From an uncultured Hyphomicrobiales bacterium (lineage in GTDB: Bacteria; Bacteroidota; Ignavibacteria; Kapaibacteriales; UBA2268), in the NCBI GenBank assembly GCA_964645005.1, contig CAZXYS010000014.1:4644-68643 (forward strand): a stretch of 64,000 bases of DNA, written 5' to 3'. This document shows, piece after piece, positions 6,148 through 53,759 of this stretch (within the stretch, counting starts at the first letter, position 1; each line of letters starts with the position of its first letter). The translations under genes and the position numbers were made by a program. The notes under the pieces are model-generated. The model worked only from the letters and a program-made list of their open reading frames with translations, had not been told where the DNA came from and searched no databases.

Positions 6148-6289
6148 ACAAATTCAGAGAATGTGCTGAAATTAATTAGCGAAAATAATCAATTTCGATA
6201 GAATTAGCATAAGAGAAAAAAGCAAGAAAATTGTTAGGATAATTTTACTTTTTCGGAATGATAGAATTAATAATGGGATATAATCCCGG

Positions 6290-6440
6290 ATTTTTCATTG
6301 AACATAAACAATCTCTTATTCCCCTTCATCCCCAGCCCTTCTCTCCCGGCGGGATAAGGGGGAAAGAAATTATTTTTACACTGAAAGTCCCTTCTCCACT
6401 TGGGAGAAGGGATTTAGGGATGTGGGAATTCTTCTAATGA
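6290..6440. repeat. G/C-rich palindromic intergenic repeat elements (REP-like)
   Basis: It contains the hairpins cccttctcc-acttg-ggagaaggg and ctcccggcgggat, followed by gggatgtggg. The same hairpin + G-run architecture recurs near 12.7 kb, 26.25 kb and 9.6 kb. Confidence 0.5.
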
Positions 6441-6479
6441 ATTTCCCGGGATGAATAATTAGGCGCTGTTTCAACTGTT

Positions 6480-9265: not shown

Positions 9266-9532
9266 CAAAATGACATAAAATAAACTTTCAAATCATTTAT
9301 TAATAATCATGCTATTCATCACACTCATTCATCTTGTACTTAGCCTGTAAACGTACATTCCTGAAGGAACATCATTTAAATCCATATTTTTCATTAGAAC
9401 TCTTCAGTACTACTAACAAATTACAATTCATCATTTTAGAAGAACCGCCCCGTAAAGCCTTCGGCTTCATTGAGGCTGACTCATAAGCACTAAATTTTGT
9501 GTAACATTCTTTTTAGCTCAGTGAGGAAACCA

Positions 9533-9692
9533 GTATTCATCAGATTCCTGCCCTGCTAAAGCAGGATCTAAAGACATTCGCAGGAATGACTTTTCTATAC
9601 TTTTGGGTCAGCCTCATACAGGGGTGGTTAATTTCTTAGGGTTAAATTGTTTATGCTAATGAAAGAATAATCTGATGAAATATCCGGGTTTA
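9533..9692 (+). repeat. composite intergenic repeat (REP/MITE-like); modules shared with 52800-52907 (inverted) and 26298-26375
   Basis: attcatcagattcctgccctgctaaagcaggatctaaagacattcgcaggaatgac...cagcctcatacaggggtggtt aligns at ~85–90% over ~105 bp with the reverse complement of 52800-52907. The following ggtggtt...aatgaaa...tgaaatatccgggtt module matches 26298-26375. Confidence 0.7.
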
Positions 9693-9715
9693 TAAAGACA
9701 GCTAATAATTTGTTA

Positions 9716-10387
9716 TCAATTATTAGGATCCGTATATTTTTTTTTGGATAAGGCATATCTCACCAGCGAGGCAGTATTATTTACGCCCAATTTCTGCATT
9801 AAATTATAGCGATGCGATTCCACAGTGCGGACGCTGATAAACAGCTTCTCTGCTATTTCCGGGCTGGACTTGCCATCTGCGACAAGGTCGAGGATTTCCT
9901 GCTCACGCTTGGTGATTACCACCGGCGTATTATCCGGTTCAGTCTCAGGCAGGACTTTCTTCCGCAATGTATTTATTATTGATCGGCTCAGCACTCTTTC
10001 GCCGCTGATCACGGATTTTATAGATTCATTTAATTCTTTTGCGGAGATATCTTTGGATAGGTAGCCGTTGGCGCCCGCTTCCAGTGCCTGTTCTATATGC
10101 TTATAATCTTCAAAGGCTGTTAACATAATAATATACACTTCCGGCATTTCCTGCTTAATTATCTTCGTAACTTCTATGCCGTTCATTTTCGGCATAAGAA
10201 TATCCAGCAGTACAACATCCGGCTCGTGGTATTTGATAAGATCGACTGCATCCTTGCCATTTGCCGCTTCATCCACGATCTTTATATTCTTATTCACATT
10301 CAATAGCCGCCTGATGCCGCTTCTGACGATTTCGTGATCGTCGGCGAGTAATATCGTCACATCCCTGTCGAAATCAAAATTTGCCAT
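9716..10387 (-). CDS. two-component response regulator, NarL/FixJ (LuxR-type HTH) family
   Basis: A receiver domain (ILLADDHEIVRSG...VVLLDILMPKMNG) is followed by a LuxR HTH (LTKREQEILDLVADGKSSPEIAEKLFISVRTVESHRYNLMQKLG). Confidence 0.9.
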   Translation of the reverse strand: MANFDFDRDVTILLADDHEIVRSGIRRLLNVNKNIKIVDEAANGKDAVDLIKYHEPDVVLLDILMPKMNGIEVTKIIKQEMPEVYIIMLTAFEDYKHIEQALEAGANGYLSKDISAKELNESIKSVISGERVLSRSIINTLRKKVLPETEPDNTPVVITKREQEILDLVADGKSSPEIAEKLFISVRTVESHRYNLMQKLGVNNTASLVRYALSKKKYTDPNN

Positions 10388-12394: not shown

Positions 12395-12539
12395 ATTTCC
12401 CCGAAAGATATTCTTTATAATGACAATTTAACGAATAATTGTCAAAAGTGGAAATATAATAAATTTAATAATAGCAACGCTGTTGATCGGTCTTTATTTT
12501 CGGATCGAGGTACAGCCAAACAACCCCAATAATCAGAAA

Positions 12540-12790
12540 CGGCAGCCTGCTTACGGAATTCCGATTACGTAAGCACGAGTTCCCGCAAAGTTGCACTTCG
12601 CTTCATAATCACAGTAAATAGGGCATGTGAAGTACCGTTCAGAATGCAAAAAGCGAGGTAGAGACAGACCTCTGGTCTGTCAAAACAAAAACTTCTCCCT
12701 CAGGAAGAGGACAGTGTGAGGATTCTTATCCCCCCTCCTTGAATAAAGAGGGGGCTAGGGGGTGGTTAAAATGAACAAAATTGAAACACC
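12540..12790. repeat. cluster of G/C-rich palindromic intergenic repeats in the 570-bp nadE upstream region
   Basis: It contains hairpins gcttacg-N11-cgtaagc, gacagacc-tct-ggtctgtc and cccccctcc-ttgaataaag-agggggc, followed by gggggtggtt. This matches the architecture of the 26262-26300 and 6380-6420 repeats. Confidence 0.5.
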
Positions 12791-12966
12791 CACTACCCCA
12801 TACAAAAAGTTGCAGAAAGTTTAAATCGTTCCTTGAAAACTCAGTCAGATATAACAAAACTCATTGAAAAAAAAGGTTACCCCTGTTTTAACAAAGGCAA
12901 CCTAATCTTATCTTATAATACATTTTACTGTCAGATATAACATTTGACAGTACGAAAAGTAGAGAA

Positions 12967-15900
12967 CTACTCTATAATCAGCTTATGCGTTGTTATCTGG
13001 TCTCCGCTCTGCATCTTAAGCATGTACATGCCTGCCGGCAGATCTTCCGGCGTCCAGGTAAATTCATAAACGTTAGCTTCGAGAGTTTTATCGATCAGAG
13101 TTTCGATAGCCTGACCCATCGAATTGTAAACAGTAATGTTTACATCCGAGTAATTGGAAACGAAGAACTGGATCTTCGTTGAACCCGTGAACGGATTCGG
13201 ATAGGACTTGATCATCTTATCACCGTCGCCGGCAATCGCGCCGAATTCTTCGACAGATTGTACCTCGCCCGCAAGTCCGGATTTGGAGAGGAATGTCCAT
13301 CCGGAGAGCCACATATCATCGCCGAAAGCGCCTATATGATTTACCTGTGTGAAGAAGCCGCCGGCTGGGAGGTCAGCTTTATCATTCGTGAATGCCGGAC
13401 CATCTGGTGCAGGTCTCGGATCGAGAACATTGTTTTCTGTCTGATTGAACAGGCGTCCTACACCTCTGATTTGCGGATTCTGCAGCCAGTTATTGTTAGC
13501 TTTCATGTGAGTTTGAACATAACCCTGATCGGATTTTGTCAGTTCAGCCCAGGAAGTGCTGCCGACGCCGAATTCGTACCACAGATTGTTTGCAAATACC
13601 AGATCGCCCGCTTCCATTCTGTCACGGCTGTCGGGATCATCTTTATCTTCTACGTCAATGATTACACCGGAGCTTGTGCCGGGGAAATCATAGAAAATGC
13701 TGTTTTTATAAGTTGGGGAAGAGTTTTGACGGATCTTGAATACCATATTTTCATATTTCGGATATGCATTGGCTCCTGCCCCGATATACGTAGCATTGTA
13801 AATTATTGGCATCGAAGTCGGCTGGGCGCCAACGACATCATCATGACCGTCATGTTCGCCTGCGCGGTCGCCCGCTTTGACCGTATCTTGTATAGCAAAG
13901 AAGAACTGTCCTTTTCCCTGCCAGCCTTGATCGAGGTCAAATGCATCGTCTTTACAGAATGCCGCAACAAGATACTTACAGCTAACCGTGCCGCCGAACC
14001 ATTCGAAGCCGTCGTCATTATTTGCATAAACTTCGACATGCTCGACAGTGGTTCCGCTGCCGACTGCGCCGAATGTAACGCCATTGATCTCGTCGCCGTC
14101 GCCGAGGTCGGTGCCGCCATGCCGTACGGAAACATAACGAAGAACACCGGAATTATCCGCATCATCAGGATTGTTTCCGCCGCCATAGCTTCCTCGCTCT
14201 TCCGTACTTGGAATACCTTCGATATGACCTTCACCGCCTTCGAGGTTGGTTGTGGCATTACCGAGAATTATCAATCCGCCCCACAAGCCGCGTGTACCGG
14301 CTGGGAGGTCGTTAGGATCGTTAGTATCATCAGCTTCCGCTGTGAATATGATAGGATCGTTAGCTGTTCCTTCAGCCATGATCTTACCGCCGCGGGCGAT
14401 GACTAACGCGCTGGCATTTGCGCCTTGTCCGGGCATACCTTTGATAACCGTACCGGCTTCGATATTCAGCACAGCGCCGTCTTCAACGAAAACGAAGCCG
14501 TTAAGGTGATAGGTGTTATTTCTTGTCCAATTATAAGTTTGACCCGATTTGATGTCGCTGTCGAATACCTGAACATCGTTGCCAACTTCGATCGGACGTG
14601 CAATACCGCTCTGATAGAGCATTGTCCAGTTTCCGATCCAGTAGTTGTTCGGTCCAAATGCTCCAAGATAATCTACATCATCATAAAATTTATTATCGTA
14701 TGTGGCTTTGGCTTTGGACATTGCCGGGCTTCCAGCTTTAGGTCTGGGATCAAGGATGTTATCCTTAGTTTTGTTAAACAATCGTCCAACACCTCTGAGC
14801 ATGGGATCTTCAATCCAGTTATTGTTAGCTTCCATGTGAGTTTGAACATAACCCTGATCGGATTTTGTCAGTTCAGCCCAGGAAGTGCTGCCGACGCCGA
14901 ATTCGTACCACAGATTGTTTGCAAATACCAGATCGCCCGCTTCCATTCTGTCACGGCTGTCGGGATCATCTTTATCTTCTACGTCAATGATTACACCGGA
15001 GCTTGTGCCGGGGAAATCATAGAAAATGCTGTTTTTATAAGTTGGGGAAGAGTTTTGACGGATCTTGAATACCATATTTTCATATTTCGGATATGCATTG
15101 GCTCCTGCCCCGATATACGTAGCATTGTAAATTATTGGCATCGAAGTCGGCTGGGCGCCAACGACATCATCATGACCGTCATGTTCGCCTGCGCGGTCGC
15201 CCGCTTTGACCGTATCTTGTATAGCAAAGAAGAACTGTCCTTTTCCCTGCCAGCCTTGATCGAGGTCAAATGCATCGTCTTTACAGAATGCCGCAACAAG
15301 ATACTTACAGCTAACCGTGCCGCCGAACCATTCGAAGCCGTCGTCATTATTTGCATAAACTTCGACATGCTCGACAGTGGTTCCGCTGCCGACTGCGCCG
15401 AATGTAACGCCATTGATCTCGTCGCCGTCGCCGAGGTCGGTGCCGCCATGCCGTACGGAAACATAACGAAGAACACCGGAATTATCCGCATCATCAGGAT
15501 TGTTTCCGCCGCCATAGCTTCCTCGCTCTTCCGTACTTGGAATACCTTCGATATGACCTTCACCGCCTTCGAGGTTGGTTGTGGCATTACCGAGAATTAT
15601 CAATCCGCCCCACAAGCCGCGTGTACCGGCTGGGAGGTCGTTAGGATCGTTAGTATCATCAGCTTCCGCTGTGAATATGATAGGATCGTTAGCTGTTCCT
15701 TCAGCCATGATCTTACCGCCGCGGGCGATGACTAACGCGCTGGCATTTGCGCCTTGTCCGGGCATACCTTTGATAACCGTACCGGCTTCGATATTCAGCA
15801 CAGCGCCGTCTTCAACGAAAACGAAGCCGTCGAGATGGTAAACATTATCAGAAGTCCAGGTTACTTGTTGTCCGGCTTGAATGTCATCATCGGTGACGTT

Positions 15901-15972
15901 TATATCAGCGGACAAAGCTGCAAAGGGGGCAAAAAGAATGATTATAAGGATCGCATAGAGTTTGTAATTCAT
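12967..15972 (-). CDS. secreted T9SS-cargo protein with two tandem ~443-aa repeated domains (possible β-helix) and a C-terminal Por secretion sorting domain
   Basis: Signal peptide MNYKLYAILIIILFAPFAALSA. The C-terminus KSYPNPFTGSTKIQFFVSNYSDVNITVYNSMGQ...LKMQSGDQITTHKLIIE has the YPNPF T9SS C-terminal domain pattern. The internal domain is duplicated. Confidence 0.8.
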   Translation of the reverse strand: MNYKLYAILIIILFAPFAALSADINVTDDDIQAGQQVTWTSDNVYHLDGFVFVEDGAVLNIEAGTVIKGMPGQGANASALVIARGGKIMAEGTANDPIIFTAEADDTNDPNDLPAGTRGLWGGLIILGNATTNLEGGEGHIEGIPSTEERGSYGGGNNPDDADNSGVLRYVSVRHGGTDLGDGDEINGVTFGAVGSGTTVEHVEVYANNDDGFEWFGGTVSCKYLVAAFCKDDAFDLDQGWQGKGQFFFAIQDTVKAGDRAGEHDGHDDVVGAQPTSMPIIYNATYIGAGANAYPKYENMVFKIRQNSSPTYKNSIFYDFPGTSSGVIIDVEDKDDPDSRDRMEAGDLVFANNLWYEFGVGSTSWAELTKSDQGYVQTHMEANNNWIEDPMLRGVGRLFNKTKDNILDPRPKAGSPAMSKAKATYDNKFYDDVDYLGAFGPNNYWIGNWTMLYQSGIARPIEVGNDVQVFDSDIKSGQTYNWTRNNTYHLNGFVFVEDGAVLNIEAGTVIKGMPGQGANASALVIARGGKIMAEGTANDPIIFTAEADDTNDPNDLPAGTRGLWGGLIILGNATTNLEGGEGHIEGIPSTEERGSYGGGNNPDDADNSGVLRYVSVRHGGTDLGDGDEINGVTFGAVGSGTTVEHVEVYANNDDGFEWFGGTVSCKYLVAAFCKDDAFDLDQGWQGKGQFFFAIQDTVKAGDRAGEHDGHDDVVGAQPTSMPIIYNATYIGAGANAYPKYENMVFKIRQNSSPTYKNSIFYDFPGTSSGVIIDVEDKDDPDSRDRMEAGDLVFANNLWYEFGVGSTSWAELTKSDQGYVQTHMKANNNWLQNPQIRGVGRLFNQTENNVLDPRPAPDGPAFTNDKADLPAGGFFTQVNHIGAFGDDMWLSGWTFLSKSGLAGEVQSVEEFGAIAGDGDKMIKSYPNPFTGSTKIQFFVSNYSDVNITVYNSMGQAIETLIDKTLEANVYEFTWTPEDLPAGMYMLKMQSGDQITTHKLIIE
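13506..14500. repeat. copy 2 of a ~995-bp perfect tandem repeat inside the T9SS gene (1329-bp period)
   Basis: The nucleotide sequence 13506-14500 is identical to 14835-15829 (for example ccctgatcggattttgtcagttcagcccaggaagtgctgccgacgcc at both). Antisense ORFs 13258..14406 and 14425..15735 translate identically over this span. Confidence 0.9.
14835..15829. repeat. copy 1 of the ~995-bp perfect tandem repeat
   Basis: See 13506-14500. The flanks diverge (HMEANNNWIEDPMLRG... versus HMKANNNWLQNPQIRG...). Confidence 0.9.
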
Positions 15973-26155: not shown

Positions 26156-26249
26156 TGTCCTCTTAGTCAGCGTAAAAGTATTAAACCCAATTTTTGCATT
26201 AGAAAAACATCTATCAGAATAAATAGCTTAACTTTAAGAACTTAACCAC

Positions 26250-26375
26250 CCCTTCTTTTCCCCTCCTTAGTAAGGAGGGGAGTGAAGCCGGAGGCTTTAC
26301 CGGGTGGTTCTTATAATTTACCAAATTGTAATATTTTAGTAGGATTGATGATTTCTAATGAAATATCCGGGTTAA
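26250..26375. repeat. intergenic REP-like repeat (hairpin cccctcctta-gtaaggagggg plus gggtggtt module)
   Basis: aaccaccccttcttttcccctccttagtaaggaggggagtgaagccggaggctttaccgggtggtt contains nested palindromes. gtgaagccggaggctttac is the inverted match of 9446-9465, and 26298-26375 matches 9618-9692. Confidence 0.65.
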
Positions 26376-26502
26376 AGCAAGGTATCATTGCGAGGAGCAT
26401 AGCGACGAAGCAATCTCAAGCTAATGTGACTGCATCGCATTAAACGATACCTGGCTAATTTTTATCTTCAATACAAAATCAGATATTGATGATATCAATA
26501 AG

Positions 26503-43151: not shown

Positions 43152-46100
43152 ATGTTAACAAATGATACCTCTCACAGCAGTAGATTGCATACTACACTGT
43201 TGACAATTGTATTAATGTTCTTTGCTTTCAGCCAAAATGCATTGTCGCAGGACGCAGCCTACACCGGAAATCCGCGCCCTTTTCATCAGGGATATGTTAA
43301 CCACCCGGTAACAGTTGAAGCCGGAATTGCAAATTTAGAAAACATACCCGTCCGGAATATTAGAATACACTTTCGAATTATTTACATTGATGGGGATCAG
43401 GTTGTTTTCGAACATCGGGATACGCTGGAATCCCTTGATGGTAATTCTTCCGTTAGAATTAAAGCGCCGGAAAGATGGGCGCCGCAAAATGAAGGGCAAT
43501 ATCTTGCTCAATTCTATTTTGAGGCGGATAATGATCAGGAACCGGCTAATAACGCTGTAAACAATGAATTGAGAATCACAGAATGGCCCATGCCATTTGA
43601 TTTGACAATAGAGCAAATAAATTTCACCAGACCATTCGAACAGTTTAACTCAAATATCGGCTTTTTCACATTTACTTATGAGCCGTCTGATAATGTTCAA
43701 TTCGTAAATATCATGGCTGCTCTTCCAAACAGCTCAGAGCCGCCTGTTTGGATTGTTAAGAATTTCCCGATAAGTCCATTCCAATCAAAGCAGACAGTCT
43801 CTGTCTGGGCGGATTTTAAGCCACTGCAAATTGAAAATGGCACCGACATCCATGATTTGATGATTGATTACCAGGTAACCGACGAGATCATCACCGAAGG
43901 ATTCACGATGGATAACGACTATCCTTTGGAAGTCGAGGATGTAGAATACAATGTGGACAGCGATATAACAGAAGTAATCCCGTCCGAAATTCCCACTGAC
44001 ATTCCCGAAATAATGTGGGATCCCGGGGAAATTTACTGGGATTATCGCGGATGCGAAGTTCCTAACATCGATCTGGATTCTTCCGAACATAATCCAGACG
44101 ATGAGCCGGGCTATGAAGGCGACTGGAACGCATGCGGTCCTGCAAGTACCGCAAACAGTATGCAATGGCTCGAGGATAACAACGATAATATTCCCAGCTC
44201 CGGCACAACACACCGCGAAAAAATGAAAGAAATGAGCGGAATGATGGAGCGCGGCAATGAAGACGGCGTCACCACTAACCAGATGCTAAAAGGAAAGCTC
44301 GGCTATATTGACAAGCATAAGCTGCCTATAAAAGTCAAATTCCAGAGTTATTTCGAAAGGGCTGATTCAGTGGAATCACCAAATGATAAATACGGGCATT
44401 CGGCTGAAAACCAGAGTGAATCAACCGGCGCCCCGCCAACTTTCGAATGGATTAAAGAAGAGATGGCAAACGGCGAAGATGTTGAGATAATGTTCGGCTG
44501 GTACGACCGCTCTGGCAACAGACACGGCGGACACTGGGTTGTTCTGACTGGCGTCAGTCAGGTTGGCAATAATACTAAAGGTCTGTACTTCAAAGATGAC
44601 CTGCATCAAGACAGAGAAGGCGGCACGCGCCAGCAATATGTCAACTGGGTCGAAGGCGATGACGGATGGTCGCGCCTTGTCGGTTTGGAAGGACCCAACA
44701 ACTACTGCTGGGTGGAAAGCGCCATTTCCGAAAGCTATGATCCGACAGTAACTCACGATATACAGGATATTCAAATCAATCAGTTGAATTACGACTCATT
44801 CTTCGATGTGTTCACATCTCTCAAATCCCACTTCAAATTCGATTTTGTTCCTGAAGATTATCCGCGATATCTGAATGTATTTGCAAATGATGTTGACGGC
44901 GATAGAGAATGGATACTGCGGAATATTCTGCTGCCGCCATTCGAAGTGAGAAGTGAACTCGCCGTTTGGTGGGATATGAGCGTTCTCGGATACGAAGAAG
45001 GCGACGAGATAGATGAACTTGAAATAGGATTCAAAGTAGATACTGATTATATCAACGAGGAAACTTCTCAAACTTACACTGTCGGCAATTGGCAGCCTAT
45101 ACCCGTCAATGATGTTGAATACAATAAAAAATTGAACACAGTTGAGCAAGACGACGAAAAGCTTGATATAGACATCGAAGTGACATACCTTAGAGATTTC
45201 GAACTCGGCGAAGATATAAAATGGCATTACCGCGGGTGCGAGGTTCCGAACATCGATCTTGACTCTGCCCGAAACAATCCGAATACCGATACAAGCTATG
45301 CCGGTGATGCAAACGCCTGCGGGCCTGCCGGCGCAGCCAACAGCCTTCACTGGCTCGAGACCACGCATCCCAAGCTCAGTGAGAACACCACTCACAGAGA
45401 AAAGCTGAAAGAACTAAGCGATATGATGGATCGCGAGGATAATGGGGGCGTATTCAGAAGAAATTTCATAGAAGCAAAGCTTGAATATATCGATAAATAC
45501 AAGCTTCCAATAAAAGTCAAATTCCGGAGCTGGAAGTTCGGCACCGATTCAATACCTTCACCTGATGATAAATACGGTCATTCGGCAGACAATCAGAATG
45601 ATTCGGCAAATTCATTCCCAAGTTTTGACTGGATGATGAACGAAATGAGAAACGGTGAAGACGTTGAGCTTGAGCTGGGCTATTATGATTCCACAGGCAG
45701 CCGCGGCGGCGGACACTGGGTCACGATCACCGGCGCCAGCGATGTCGGCACTGCACAGGGGTTTTATTTCAAAGATGATATAGATCAATCGGACAGCGGC
45801 GGAACTGAACAGGAATACTGCAACTGGGAAACTTATGAAGGTATGCCATACCTGCCACAACTCTCAACTAAAGACGAAGTTGCGGTTGTCGAGACTGTCG
45901 TTTCCGAAAGCTATGACGCAACTGTATCTCATGATATTAAGGATGTTAAGATTGAGAAGATCAATTACGACATCGGACCCTCGATGTTCGAAGATCAACC
46001 GGGCAAAGGATTGATCACGTTTAAATTCATTCCCGAAGAGGACGATCTTCGCTATGTAAATATGAAGGCGAAAACCAAAAATGACGAAGAATTCTGGGTT

Positions 46101-48638
46101 TGCAGGAATGTATTGCTGCCGCCATTCCAGGATACGAGTGATCTGTCAGTCTGGTTTGATTACGGCTGGCTGGAATATGATCGCGGCGAAATTGATGAAC
46201 TCAGTTTCCTCGACCTGGCTTACAAGATCACTGAAATACCTCTGGCAGAGAGTGAACTTAACTTCAAGGATTATAGAGAAATAGAAGTTTTCGAACTCAA
46301 TTACAATAAGAAATTGAACACTCTTGACGAAGATATAACAAAGTTAGATTTAGCTGAACCCGAACTTAAACCTATAACACCGTTTAAAGAAGTTACCTGG
46401 CATTACAGAGGCTGCGAGGTTCCGAACATCGATCTTGACTCGTCGAAGAATAATCCTTCTACTGTTACGGGTTACGCAGGCGACAGAAATGCCTGCGGAC
46501 CGGCGGCGGCGGCAAACAGCCTGCAATGGCTTGATGATGAGGACGACAACATCGATGATGACAACTCGCACCGTGACAAGCTCAAAGAACTGAGCAAAAT
46601 GATGAAACGCGAGGATAACGGCGGTGTTTACAGGAAGGACTTCATTGAAGCCAAGCTTGAATATATCGACAAGCATAAACTGCCGATCAAGGTCAAATTC
46701 CAGGGATGGAAATTCGGCGCTGACGACGTCGACTCGCCAAATTCCAAATACGGACATAAGGCTCATAATGAGAATGATTCGGCAAAAATGCCTCCCAAAT
46801 GGGATTGGATCATTAGTGAAATGAAGAATGACGAAGACGTCGAACTCGAATTCGGCTACTACGATTCAACCGGTACCCGCCGCGGCGGTCACTGGGTAAC
46901 CGTTACCGGCGTCAGCGATAATGGCAATTACAGAGGAATATATATCAAGGATGACGGCGATCAATTGGATTCCGGCGGAACCCGCCAGCAGTACGTAAAT
47001 CTGGATACTGCTCACGGATATACTTATCTCAAGCAGATTTCATCGAGCAAATATACGTGCTATGTAGAAACGGTGGTCTCCGAAAGCTATGATTCCACTA
47101 TGACATTCGAGGAACCGGAAGACCCCGTCAATATAGAAATTGTGGAATTGAATCTCAGAGGTCGAGGTGACTTTCATATAGATTCTTTCTTCGATATCTA
47201 CACAGAGATCACATTGCCGGATTCCAACGGCAAAGATAAAGATAAATTCCTGAATATGTTTGCAAGATCGCCGGGAAGTGACAGCTTCACGAGGCTCTTC
47301 CCGCTGAAGTTCCCGGCATCTAAGAAGGATACAAACGATCCTGTGCTTGAAGAACGCTTTACTTTCAAACCTATTCGCGTTGAAGGATCAACTAAGAAAA
47401 ACAAAGACGAAATACTCTCATCTCATCAGTTAGAAATTGCTTATGTCCTGGCGGACAGCCTGCTGTCCGACGATTACGAGCCTGCTGACTGGGAAACCTA
47501 CACGGCTGCCGGCAGCAATACCATAACACTGCCGAATGATGCGCTCAGCGATGAATCATACAATCTCAACCGCGTTCAGCCAAGACGGATAAGACTCGAC
47601 GCTTCGGCCTCTCAATTCTCTATGAGGCATGATAAGCCGTCTCTTGATCCGGATAATACTCAGTATAATCCGAGCACGGTTGACGGCTACGCAGGCGATA
47701 TGAACGCCGGCGGTCCCGCCGCAGCCGCTAACGGCATGGGTTGGCTCGAAATGACCCATGACGCGGTAGACACCGAGCACAGCGACAGGATCAAAATGTA
47801 CAGATATAGCAATTATGCTGGCAGAGAAGATGAACTGGGCGTTTACACCAACGACATGATCAAATCGCTGCTCAGCTTCATAGATAATAACAAAGTACCG
47901 GTAGGAGTGGAATTCCGGAGCTTCAAGCTCGGTACGGATAATATAGCCTCACCTGTCGAGCTTTACGGGCATGAAGCGAAGAACATGAATGATGCACCGG
48001 ACGACGGTCCTGATTGGAACTGGGTCAAAGAGAAGCTCGACAACGGTTACGACTTAATGCTCGAATACGGCATCTACGACTCTACCGGTCAGAGAATCGC
48101 CGGTCATTGGGTAAATGTCACAGGCTACGCAGATTACGAGACGGCTCAGGCTATCTACTTCAACTATGATCTCGACCAGCAGAATGAAAGCGATGACAGA
48201 GATTTCGTATCCGAATGGCGCACCGATCAGGACCACGCTTACCTGATGCAGTTCACTTCGGATAATCTTGTTTGCTGGGTCGAGAGTGTTATAGCTAGCA
48301 AGTATGATGAGACTGTTGAATTTGAACCGGGAGATGTTCAGGAACTGCTTAACAGCAAAGATAAACTAAATCTTTCGGTTTACAGGAATCCGAGCGCTGT
48401 CACGGAAGAGATAAACATAAACTTCATTCTTCCTGAGGCAGAGTTTGTCTCGATCGATTTGTACGACCTGAACGGCAGACTGATACACCACATCTACGAC
48501 GGCTACAAGAATTCCGGCGAAGCCACCATTAAATGGGACGGCAGAAATTCGAAGGGCGCCAGAGTATCCAACGGCGCCTATCTGATAATAGTGACAGCCA
48601 ACGATTATCAGTCAGCAGTGAAGATCATACGCGAATAA
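43152..48638 (+). CDS. 1828-aa T9SS-cargo protein with four tandem ~395-aa modules, each carrying a papain-fold-like Cys…His domain (fourth module Cys→Gly); novel architecture
   Basis: Signal peptide present. The motif YRGCEVPNIDLDS..NP....GYAGD.NACGPAAAANSLQWLE ... GGHWVTVTG.SD recurs four times at ~1185-bp spacing (Cys sites at ~44128, 45318, 46494, 47709). The C-terminus LSVYRNPSAVTEEININFILPEAEFVSIDLYDLNGRLI...GAYLIIVTANDYQSAVKIIRE is T9SS-tail-like. Confidence 0.8.
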   Translation: MLTNDTSHSSRLHTTLLTIVLMFFAFSQNALSQDAAYTGNPRPFHQGYVNHPVTVEAGIANLENIPVRNIRIHFRIIYIDGDQVVFEHRDTLESLDGNSSVRIKAPERWAPQNEGQYLAQFYFEADNDQEPANNAVNNELRITEWPMPFDLTIEQINFTRPFEQFNSNIGFFTFTYEPSDNVQFVNIMAALPNSSEPPVWIVKNFPISPFQSKQTVSVWADFKPLQIENGTDIHDLMIDYQVTDEIITEGFTMDNDYPLEVEDVEYNVDSDITEVIPSEIPTDIPEIMWDPGEIYWDYRGCEVPNIDLDSSEHNPDDEPGYEGDWNACGPASTANSMQWLEDNNDNIPSSGTTHREKMKEMSGMMERGNEDGVTTNQMLKGKLGYIDKHKLPIKVKFQSYFERADSVESPNDKYGHSAENQSESTGAPPTFEWIKEEMANGEDVEIMFGWYDRSGNRHGGHWVVLTGVSQVGNNTKGLYFKDDLHQDREGGTRQQYVNWVEGDDGWSRLVGLEGPNNYCWVESAISESYDPTVTHDIQDIQINQLNYDSFFDVFTSLKSHFKFDFVPEDYPRYLNVFANDVDGDREWILRNILLPPFEVRSELAVWWDMSVLGYEEGDEIDELEIGFKVDTDYINEETSQTYTVGNWQPIPVNDVEYNKKLNTVEQDDEKLDIDIEVTYLRDFELGEDIKWHYRGCEVPNIDLDSARNNPNTDTSYAGDANACGPAGAANSLHWLETTHPKLSENTTHREKLKELSDMMDREDNGGVFRRNFIEAKLEYIDKYKLPIKVKFRSWKFGTDSIPSPDDKYGHSADNQNDSANSFPSFDWMMNEMRNGEDVELELGYYDSTGSRGGGHWVTITGASDVGTAQGFYFKDDIDQSDSGGTEQEYCNWETYEGMPYLPQLSTKDEVAVVETVVSESYDATVSHDIKDVKIEKINYDIGPSMFEDQPGKGLITFKFIPEEDDLRYVNMKAKTKNDEEFWVCRNVLLPPFQDTSDLSVWFDYGWLEYDRGEIDELSFLDLAYKITEIPLAESELNFKDYREIEVFELNYNKKLNTLDEDITKLDLAEPELKPITPFKEVTWHYRGCEVPNIDLDSSKNNPSTVTGYAGDRNACGPAAAANSLQWLDDEDDNIDDDNSHRDKLKELSKMMKREDNGGVYRKDFIEAKLEYIDKHKLPIKVKFQGWKFGADDVDSPNSKYGHKAHNENDSAKMPPKWDWIISEMKNDEDVELEFGYYDSTGTRRGGHWVTVTGVSDNGNYRGIYIKDDGDQLDSGGTRQQYVNLDTAHGYTYLKQISSSKYTCYVETVVSESYDSTMTFEEPEDPVNIEIVELNLRGRGDFHIDSFFDIYTEITLPDSNGKDKDKFLNMFARSPGSDSFTRLFPLKFPASKKDTNDPVLEERFTFKPIRVEGSTKKNKDEILSSHQLEIAYVLADSLLSDDYEPADWETYTAAGSNTITLPNDALSDESYNLNRVQPRRIRLDASASQFSMRHDKPSLDPDNTQYNPSTVDGYAGDMNAGGPAAAANGMGWLEMTHDAVDTEHSDRIKMYRYSNYAGREDELGVYTNDMIKSLLSFIDNNKVPVGVEFRSFKLGTDNIASPVELYGHEAKNMNDAPDDGPDWNWVKEKLDNGYDLMLEYGIYDSTGQRIAGHWVNVTGYADYETAQAIYFNYDLDQQNESDDRDFVSEWRTDQDHAYLMQFTSDNLVCWVESVIASKYDETVEFEPGDVQELLNSKDKLNLSVYRNPSAVTEEININFILPEAEFVSIDLYDLNGRLIHHIYDGYKNSGEATIKWDGRNSKGARVSNGAYLIIVTANDYQSAVKIIRE

Positions 48639-48768: not shown

Positions 48769-48782
48769 ATTGTATTTCTCAG

Positions 48783-48855
<73 letters not shown>

Positions 48856-48985
48856 ATCATTTGTCTTACAAAATTAACGAATATTCTCTGTTTTAAAAAA
48901 ACTTTTTGTTAAAACTGTGAATTTTTCGTTAATTTATAATTTCGATTTCAACGACGTAAAGAGGTCTATCATTATTTGAAATTTT

Positions 48986-52732: not shown

Positions 52733-52799
52733 GATTGACTGATTTAAAAAAGTTTTAAGTTTTGAGTTAAAATTAACTGTTTTACTGAATGTCTCTATG

Positions 52800-52907
52800 A
52801 AGATAATTACACCTGTTTAGAGGCTGTCTCAAAAGTCAGTAAATGTCATTCCTGCGAATGACTTTAGATCCTGCTTTAGCAGGGCAGGAATCTGATGAAT
52901 AGCGGAT
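52800..52907 (-). repeat. inverted copy of the 9533-9640 intergenic repeat
   Basis: The reverse complement ctattcatcagattcctgccctgctaaagcaggatctaaagtcattcgcaggaatgac...cagcctctaaacaggtg matches 9533-9640 at ~85–90% identity. Confidence 0.7.
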
Positions 52908-53075
52908 TGTTTACTGCATTCAGCATGACGTTTCAAGATTTTAGTACTATGTTACACTCTCGATGAAGATGTATTCCAGTATTGATTTTAAAGAATTCAA
53001 TAAATATCAAAATAATTTAGGATTTTAACTGATCTTAATATAAATTAGCAAAGTTATAAACTTTATTGAGGAAAA

Positions 53076-53333
53076 ATGGCGGATTTAATTTTAAATATAA
53101 AAATTGAAAAACTCGAAGAAGGTGGATATCTTGCTTTATCTGAGGATTTGCCGGGTTTATTAGCCGAAGGACGCTCATATCAGGGAACACTTGAAATAGC
53201 TCATGATGTCGCAAAAAAGCTAATAGAATCCTATATCGAGCATAATGATCCTTTACCTGAAAAAATAAAGAAACAACTAAAGCAGCCGCAAAAAAGTCAT
53301 AAATTTAAAATTCCTATTTCTGTAGAGTTATGA
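53076..53333 (+). CDS. hicB: HicB-family antitoxin (UPF0150)
   Basis: 85 aa, LEEGGYLALSEDLPGLLAEGRSYQGTLEIAHDVAKKLIES. Its stop overlaps the hicA ATG (ATGA). Confidence 0.7.
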   Translation: MADLILNIKIEKLEEGGYLALSEDLPGLLAEGRSYQGTLEIAHDVAKKLIESYIEHNDPLPEKIKKQLKQPQKSHKFKIPISVEL

Positions 53334-53556
53334 GCAAGCTGCCTGAGGTCTCTTATAAAGATTTAATCAAAAAGCTAAGAAGAGCAGGTTTTATCTTTGA
53401 CAGGCAGGCAAAAGGCAGTCATGAAATCTGGTATAATCCGAAGACAAAAAGAAGAACTACAATACCTACCCCCCCCCTAAACCTATTTCTAAAGGCACGT
53501 TAAATGCCATTATCAAACAAATCAGTTTAACTGTTAAAGAATTTCAAGAATTGTGA
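53331..53556 (+). pseudogene. hicA: HicA-family mRNA interferase toxin, frameshifted in a C9 homopolymer (53469-53477)
   Basis: The N-terminus MSKLPEVSYKDLIKKLRRAGFIFDRQAKGSHEIWYNPKTKRRTTIP is HicA-like. After the C9 tract the +1 frame reads PKPISKGTLNAIIKQISLTVKEFQEL*, the conserved HicA C-terminus. The in-frame reading terminates early (…PLNLFLKAR*). Confidence 0.7.
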
Positions 53557-53759
53557 TATGATACTATTTTAGCTAATTCACTGATTCAACAAAAAAAATA
53601 TTAATTCCAAATTATCTAGAGCTTCTTTATAAGGTATAATAAAGAAAGCCCTTTCCATCGACGATATAAAGCACTTCCTTTTCAAAGTAAATTGTGTTAA
53701 GTTAACACCCTAATTCTTTGCAATTTATACTGGTTCAGGTTGATTTCCTCCATCCTCAG

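Follow-up and report, generated by a model that had tools for sequence, protein, structure and literature searches.

The spacer at positions 9266-9715 of the window, the 64-kb stretch of DNA analysed here, contains palindromes that recur in other intergenic regions of the same stretch and raises the question of what these repeats are and where they come from. A preliminary description had assigned them to a G/C-rich, REP- or MITE-like family present at five or more loci and built from three module types, A, B and C. The palindromes are very probably MITEs and fragments of MITEs that come from a clade within the IS1380 family of insertion sequences. The sequence shared between the five loci is real and beyond chance, but the boundaries of the modules and the list of what each locus shares need revision. 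Modules A, B and C are not three independent types: they are nested layers of one element family, in which module C is the terminal inverted repeat (TIR), module B is an inner hairpin and module A belongs to a segment replacing that hairpin. The window holds three complete copies (elements 1, 2 and 3) and two fragments (Table 1). The five loci do not all share modules as had been thought. Element 1 has its TIRs and hairpin architecture in common with elements 2 and 3 and nothing else, while the fragments at 12725-12769 and 52761-52968 lack TIRs and are assigned to the family because parts of elements 2 and 3 are homologous to them.

Table 1. Elements of the repeat family in the window, their internal parts and the fragments, in order of position.
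Feature	Positions	Strand	Description and basis
Element 1	6285-6450	.	166-nt MITE; TIR matches and fold z = -5.4
Element 2	9380-9688	.	309-nt composite MITE; fold z = -5.7; homology to element 3
Replacement segment in element 2	9470-9619	.	150 nt; aligned with element 3 in reverse complement
Module A core, copy 1	9535-9590	+	56 nt; identity to copy 2; fold z = -3.6
Solo module B fragment	12725-12769	-	45 nt, without TIRs; pairwise test against element 3
Element 3	26185-26371	.	187-nt MITE; fold z = -5.9; TIR match
Module B in element 3	26242-26309	.	Hairpin z = -4.2
Inner part of an element-2-type MITE, partial, without TIRs	52761-52968	-	Homology to 9465-9665
Module A core, copy 2	52845-52900	-	Identity to copy 1

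The complete copies have a common anatomy, with an inverted repeat of ~20 bp at each end, A+T-rich arms and one or two inner G+C-rich hairpins whose 5' arm is pyrimidine and whose 3' arm is purine. Each folds as a long hairpin closed by its own ends (z = -5.4 to -5.9). They have no coding capacity, their only ORFs (≤59 aa) being spurious, and all three are, as expected of MITEs, under about 600 bp and without a transposase ORF. The richness in G/C ascribed to the repeats is found in the inner hairpins (44-56% G+C, compared with 16-30% in typical intergenic DNA here) but not in the whole elements, which have 35-44% against a window mean of 40.6%.

Module C had been described as a one-sided tail. 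Its sequence does recur, CCCGGATATTTCATTAGAA having three matches in the window with up to three mismatches where 0.01 are expected, but it is a TIR, CCCGGATATTTCAT(C/T)AGA. A search for terminal inverted repeats had been suggested earlier, and they are present at both ends of the three elements. The looser pattern CCCGGNNNTTTCAT picks up the left end of element 1 too. The ends of element 1, CCCGGATTTTTCATTGAAC (6285-6303) and CCCGGGAAATTCATTAGAA (reverse complement of 6432-6450), enclose two hairpins, of which that at about 6336-6360 is degraded and that at 6386-6414 is strong (z = -4.8 for 6384-6416). In elements 2 and 3 only one TIR is intact, its partner being degraded with 5-6 differences. 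The degraded TIR is on the left in both, ATCCATATTTTTCATTAGAA at 9380-9399 and ACCCAATTTTTGCATTAGAA at 26185-26204, and the intact one on the right, CCCGGATATTTCATCAGAT in element 2 (reverse complement of 9670-9688) and CCCGGATATTTCATTAGAA in element 3 (reverse complement of 26353-26371). With one badly degraded TIR apiece these two elements may be immobile relics. TTAA stands on either side of element 3 (26181-26184, 26372-26375), and element 2 lies between TTAA (9376-9379) and TTTA (9689-9692); the tetranucleotides flanking element 1, TAAT and ATGA, do not match. The TIR pattern gave no match in IMG/VR.

The TIR identifies the source family. The pattern AACCCGGATATTTCATYAGA has 48 exact matches in the GTDB representatives (one genome per species), for which a rough estimate of the chance expectation, for a 20-mer with one two-fold degenerate position, is a few hits in ~1.2e12 positions; at least one of the 48 loci (L021) looks like a coding coincidence. 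One locus (L043) contains a 1537-bp element that has the motif at one end and an inverted counterpart at the other; its single ORF of 451 aa scores 269.6 bits on the model NF033539, 'IS1380 family transposase' (cutoff 180), and matches PF13701 with E = 3e-54. The left end of this insertion sequence is identical to the right TIR of element 3 over 18/18 nt. On a Phycisphaerales chromosome (L022) the amino terminus of an IS1380 transposase is encoded about 90 nt after the TIR, where the start of the ORF aligns with the transposase model over its positions 2-57 (E = 1.5e-11), and a Pseudomarimonas locus (L047) begins likewise with the TIR followed by the start of an IS1380 transposase. An annotated IS1380 element of an Aliarcobacter plasmid, whose protein is 38% identical, has the ends ATCCCGCATTATGCAATAG, which fit the pattern CCCG..AT....CA.TAG, as the TIR does.

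Most of the other loci matching AACCCGGATATTTCATYAGA are short elements lying between two copies of the motif. MITEs with the same TIR measure 186 nt in Bdellovibrionales MAGs, 242-245 nt in Pseudomonadota, Gallionellales and Desulfoluna, and 69 nt in Noviherbaspirillum; a 93-nt element was also found. One Bdellovibrionales MAG has 24 loci, many of them 75-99 nt from contig ends; copies close to contig ends are the usual signature of a high-copy repeat. The family ranges over Bdellovibrionales, Pseudomonadota, Desulfobacterota, Planctomycetota and FCB-group bacteria, with a TIR that is identical among lineages and interiors that differ. The tetranucleotide YTAR adjoins 12 of the 14 partner ends that the search pattern left unconstrained, and 61 of all 74 distinct ends (TTAA 30, CTAA 19, CTAG 8, TTAG 4). 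Identical flanks are found in 6/11 complete MITEs outside the window, a count in which duplication, target preference and extension of the TIR are inseparable without empty sites because TTAA is palindromic.

Closer relatives of the window elements are found in metagenomes. Metagenome contigs scanned with CCCGGATATTTCATTAGAA yielded 10 loci, including two MITEs of 163-164 nt (L067 and L070) from an organism of 32% G+C. Element 1 is a full-length homologue of both, with alignment scores of 66 to L070 and 54 to L067 against a null of 10.5 +/- 1.5, and with a blastn E of 2.7e-14 to L070. The parts follow the same order in the three sequences: TIR, hairpin CCCTAAATCCCTTCTCC/GGAGAAGGGA, second hairpin followed by CTGGGG(G/A)TGAGG, TIR. 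A family HMM (nhmmer) built from element 1, L067 and L070 covers element 3 from end to end (E = 0.002) and found no copies in the window past elements 1-3. A resemblance between the L070 flank and positions 9693-9742 of the window was rejected as homology, all that they have in common being two A+T-rich hairpins and T-runs.

Module B corresponds to the second hairpin and tail of MITEs of the L067/L070 type. In element 3 it reads TTAACCACCCC, hairpin CCCCTCCTTA/TAAGGAGGGG, hairpin AAGCCGGAGGCTT and CGGGTGGTT; on the minus strand of 12725-12769 it reads TTAACCACCCCCTAG followed by hairpin CCCCCTCTTT/AAGGAGGGGG. The match proposed earlier between these two loci is confirmed: 26242-26287 aligns to the reverse complement of 12725-12769 with a score of 22.5 (null 13.8 +/- 1.9), reached in 0/300 shuffles, the common part being TTAACCACCCC plus hairpin CCCCTCCTT/AAGGAGGGG. 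Note that the support for the solo fragment is this pairwise test, nhmmer giving only E = 7. The second hairpin occupies a constant position in L070, L067, element 3 and 12725-12769, with stems that differ yet remain complementary (CCCCTCTCC/GGAGAGGGG, CCTCTTC/GAAGAGG, CCCCTCCTTA/TAAGGAGGGG). It has decayed in element 1, and element 2 keeps of module B only the flanking AACCGCCCC...GGGGTGGTT. An independent TTAA-flanked module B element was considered and rejected: TTAACCACCCC...GGGTGGTT retrieved five unrelated hairpins from IMG/VR, and GGGGTGGTTAA was not found in the fetched loci. Module B is therefore treated as an inner hairpin and not as a transposon in its own right.

Elements 2 and 3 are homologous and lie in opposite orientation. 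Comparison of the window with itself aligns 9376-9469 to the reverse complement of 26283-26376 (94 nt, 78% identity) and 9620-9692 to that of 26182-26253 (71%), so that the homology runs through both arms and the AACCRCCC...GGGTGGTT stem. Between these two blocks, where element 3 has a hairpin region of 29 nt, element 2 carries the replacement segment, which is palindromic, is bounded by a 9-bp inverted repeat, GAGGCTGAC / GTCAGCCTC, folds with z = -4.1 and contains module A.

The module A pair put forward in the preliminary description stands, the two core copies being reverse complements at 55/56 positions and including a 40-nt exact repeat (9534-9573 / 52862-52901). The core opens with the TIR-like ATTCATCAGATT (z about 4), after which come the nested hairpins ATTCCTGC[CCTGC-TAAA-GCAGG]...GCAGGAAT. 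The similarity extends beyond it: 9465-9639 aligns to the reverse complement of 52795-52968 over 176 nt with 76% identity (E = 5e-28), and the arms of 52761-52968 beyond the core are 56-70% identical to 9465-9665. The contrast between the core and these homologous flanks is strong (Fisher p about 1e-10). With n = 2 copies, this extreme conservation may reflect selection, gene conversion or recent replacement. The module A pattern CAGATTCCTGCCCTGCNNNNGCAGGATC has no match in the GTDB representative genomes or in JGI metagenomes, and peptides read through module A and element 1 had no candidates in a database of 5.8 billion proteins.

The copies occupy varied genomic settings. The preliminary description placed all of them in convergent or long intergenic regions, which is correct for the convergent spacers 9266-9715 and 26156-26502, but the spacers 6148-6479 and 12395-12966 are co-directional and the locus 52761-52968 has an AddA-like gene on one side and a hicBA-like pair on the other instead of sitting in an empty spacer of 1 kb. 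Every copy is downstream of at least one gene. The flanking genes are unrelated housekeeping genes that code for RNase HII, a TPR protein, a DUF4292 protein, a LuxR-type regulator, NadE, PGM, an S51 peptidase and AddA. T9SS sorting domains are encoded in the window, which derives from an uncultured FCB-group bacterium. The databases contain no close relative of it: the next-best homologue of NadE is 58% identical, and the organism-named NadE homologues include Kapabacteria-like MAGs. The copies are situated 28-115 nt past stop codons and are therefore probably co-transcribed with the upstream genes; their inner hairpins would be transcribed in 3' UTRs.

The first alternative is that the repeats, irrespective of how they arose, are exapted cis-acting RNA or DNA structures now maintained for the host, above all the module A core and the G+C hairpins. 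They could protect 3' UTRs from 3' exonucleases, attenuate transcription, form a small RNA or bind a protein. Such a role is unlikely. The conservation of the module A core relative to its flanks, the strong folds (z -3.6 to -5.9), the constancy of hairpin position despite differing stem sequences and the probable co-transcription would all agree with it. However, Rfam has no match to the elements, the whole window giving two tRNAs only at gathering score and the five spacers, at E up to 5, giving chance eukaryotic models with a best E of 0.16. The terminator scans detected no T-tract after the element hairpins, and the one strong terminator in the vicinity (12903-12874, minus strand) is outside the repeat. 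Palindromic elements fold in a strand-neutral manner, as expected of any MITE, and elements 2 and 3 are inserted in opposite orientation. The core is present in two copies, for which gene conversion or a recent common source accounts equally well, and its absence from the other genomes and metagenomes searched also speaks against such a role. A host function, regulatory or other, is possible but unsupported. For the host, MITEs of this kind are most likely neutral passengers within 3' UTRs, any effect on the neighbouring genes being conjectural.

The second alternative is an origin of the REP/REPIN type, i.e., short extragenic palindromes moved by a Y1 (RAYT) transposase, which is very improbable. 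As in REP/BIME sequences and REPINs with RAYT, the window elements are intergenic, G+C-rich imperfect palindromes in a nested mosaic layout, but they end in the same sequence as DDE-type IS1380 elements. They are 166-309 nt long with 20-bp TIRs, unlike the much shorter REP units, 20-40-nt palindromes with a conserved 5' tetranucleotide that are without such TIRs and depend on a Y1 and not a DDE transposase. No transposase or RAYT/Y1 domain was found among the 30 window ORFs scanned, with two very large ORFs outside the scan. The REP-like half of the preliminary description is not upheld, and its suggestion of a remnant of a miniature mobile element proves right for the TIR-bounded copies, whose ends are those of the IS1380 family. 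The last alternative, terminators or 3' UTRs conserved among paralogous genes, which the preliminary description had named as its refuting case, or chance likeness among G+C-rich hairpins, has a practically negligible probability: every copy does lie downstream of a gene, but the flanking genes come from unrelated families, the hairpin-plus-T-tract signature is missing, the similarity statistics are far above chance and the same TIR occurs in many phyla.

An IS1380-derived MITE family can account for the distribution and the structure of the repeats as follows. An IS1380-family DDE transposase encoded elsewhere (tblastn found no IS1380 transposase in the 64-kb window) would bind both TIRs and move the element in trans. 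Insertion would occur into YTAR tetranucleotides, mostly TTAA, which are plentiful in the A+T-rich spacers of the source genome, and may duplicate the target. Because such targets are common in these spacers, copies would be found just past stop codons and between genes. The common ancestor of elements 2 and 3 would already have borne the module B hairpin, which in the lineage of element 2 would have been swapped for the 150-nt palindromic segment carrying module A. The sequences 12725-12769 and 52761-52968 would be decayed or partial copies whose TIRs were lost. The family may still be active.

Additional copies in the source genome are suggested by Logan contigs (k=31 assemblies of four runs, with contigs from 3-4 samples that are 100% identical to the window), which break at all of the loci. 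These contigs are unbroken over 10-22 kb of unique sequence. Three contig ends (15801, 52872 and 52891) lie precisely 30 nt within exact repeats of the window, one a duplication internal to a gene and the other the 40-nt repeat of module A at 52862-52901, as predicted for a k=31 graph, which calibrates the reading of contig ends. The ends at 6393/6400, 9430, 9644, 12629, 26221 and 26386/26387 are accounted for by no repeat within the window and therefore point to exact matches of ≥31 nt outside it. The stretches matched in this way would span roughly 6371-6422, 9401-9673 and 26192-26416, together with sequence from about 12600 onward, which would fit further copies of elements 1-3 at other places in the genome.

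The assignment can be set beside what is described for the IS1380 family (IS1247, ISEcp1, IS1380; NF033539, PF13701). The inverted repeats of published members measure 13-16 bp and are accompanied by a short direct repeat, of 5 bp in the 1672-bp IS1247, and members of the family use imperfect surrogate right ends and mobilise adjacent DNA (PMC3281130). The window elements carry the same 18-20-nt ends as the transposase-encoding L043 and L022, and their ends start with CC(C)G, as do those of the annotated Aliarcobacter element. They differ in having no transposase, in being 5-10 times shorter and in their YTAR/TTAA flanks, which give an apparent 4-bp target, possibly duplicated, instead of the 5 bp reported for IS1247. 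It might be speculated that the use of surrogate ends has to do with the pairing, in both element 2 and element 3, of a perfect end with a poor one.

Both MITEs as a kind and IS1380 as a family are already well known. MITEs are catalogued alongside insertion sequences (PMC2779907) and mosaic MITEs have been described (PMC4133298). The bacterial examples (Correia/NEMIS of Neisseria, RUP, ERIC, Nezha, MaeMITEs of Microcystis and Tn3-derived TIMEs) are likewise small, non-coding, bounded by TIRs and able to form a long hairpin, and are likewise intergenic, often co-transcribed, multi-copy and assembly-breaking. They differ in parent family, and the type found here has a 20-bp TIR that is identical over several phyla around a lineage-specific interior. 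In the literature searched, titles, abstracts and passages of papers mentioning both IS1380 and MITEs contain no IS1380-derived MITE, which is weak negative evidence. The elements are selfish DNA of an ordinary kind from a source family that is poorly documented.

A further likeness is to the eukaryotic piggyBac, of which CCC...GGG ends and TTAA are hallmarks (PMC7351741, PMC10140906) and of which IS1380 transposases are regarded as distant prokaryotic relatives and an outgroup (PMC10140906, PMC10813416). A piggyBac element also duplicates its TTAA target and leaves by seamless excision. The TIR-bounded elements have CCC...GGG ends adjoining TTAA in the same way, although the target is here relaxed to YTAR and the likeness is one of ends and flanks. 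The bolder proposal that this IS1380 clade is the true prokaryotic counterpart of piggyBac (TTAA/YTAR-specific, with CCC...GGG ends kept identical over several phyla), and that its MITEs are partly domesticated in this bacterium, with the module A core, its TIR-like half-site and nested hairpins included, preserved by selection as a protein-binding site or small structured RNA and not through recent copying, is quite unlikely.

Recognition of the family gives the hitherto unexplained intergenic palindromes an identity as mobile elements that can be searched for by one signature, YTAR and then CCCGGATATTTCAT(C/T)AGA. The elements break short-read assemblies and create spurious small ORFs, and their recognition improves the annotation of MAGs. 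The conservation of a 20-bp end across phyla, together with TTAA-like targets, makes this IS1380 clade a convenient test system for comparison with piggyBac transposition.

A 186-nt MITE bounded by the ~20-bp terminal inverted repeat of the window elements occurs at 24 or more loci (among L010-L053) in a single MAG of Bdellovibrionales, JAYVXS01. Many contigs of this assembly terminate within the MITE, 75-99 nt inside. Its first 35 nt or so are similar to the left end of the IS1380 element found in a Phycisphaerales chromosome (L022).

In the window, the second module A copy (52845-52900, minus strand) lies in a region (52733-53759) that was described as long and intergenic. Note that this region holds two small overlapping plus-strand ORFs (53076-53503), one HicB-like and the other overlapping a call tagged HicA_toxin (see Table); the module A copy thus sits on the upstream side of a putative toxin-antitoxin pair of the hicBA type.

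Features with coding potential (window coordinates)
Feature	Position	Strand	Length	Remark
Por_Secre_tail (T9SS-sorted) protein gene	12967-15972		1001 aa	contains 1.18-kb tandem duplication
HicB-like ORF	53076-53333	+	85 aa	
57-aa ORF	53330-53503	+	57 aa	overlaps shorter Logan gene call tagged HicA_toxin

The spacer upstream of NadE has one Logan contig (k=31 short-read contigs identical to the window) ending at 12629, which implies an exact repeat starting near 12600. The implied repeat, positioned left of the solo module B fragment (12725-12769) in the stretch 12600-12724, has no counterpart within the window and may represent another element type. The fold of 12519-12767 has z = -3.4.

Repeats are also found inside protein genes. 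The two copies of the Por_Secre_tail gene duplication (13376-14556 and 14705-15885) share 94% identity, and this duplication breaks short-read assemblies at 15801. An 1828-aa ORF (43152-48638) carries three to four diverged ~1.18-kb repeats (44028-48178) of 58-64% identity. tRNA-Met (48782-48855) is closely followed by a near-perfect palindrome of 65 nt (48871-48935; 82% self-complementary), which in turn lies upstream of an AddA-like gene.

The motif (GTC/ATC)ATTGCGAGGAGCNNAGCGACGAAGCAATC at 26384-26416, 8 nt past the right-hand TTAA flank of element 3 (the 187-nt MITE), is a conserved and widespread palindromic element. The pattern of its 26 specified bases has 90 exact matches, distributed over 78 IMG/VR stretches, and GTC precedes this pattern in nearly all of them. 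In many cases GGATTGCTTCG..CTCGCAATGAC, an inverted partner, is present after a further 10-25 nt, and in some cases (loci L115 and L148) the motif is organized in arrays with a spacing of ~157 nt. In three samples, Logan contigs break off precisely at the edge of the motif in the window, indicating that the source organism likewise carries multiple copies of it.
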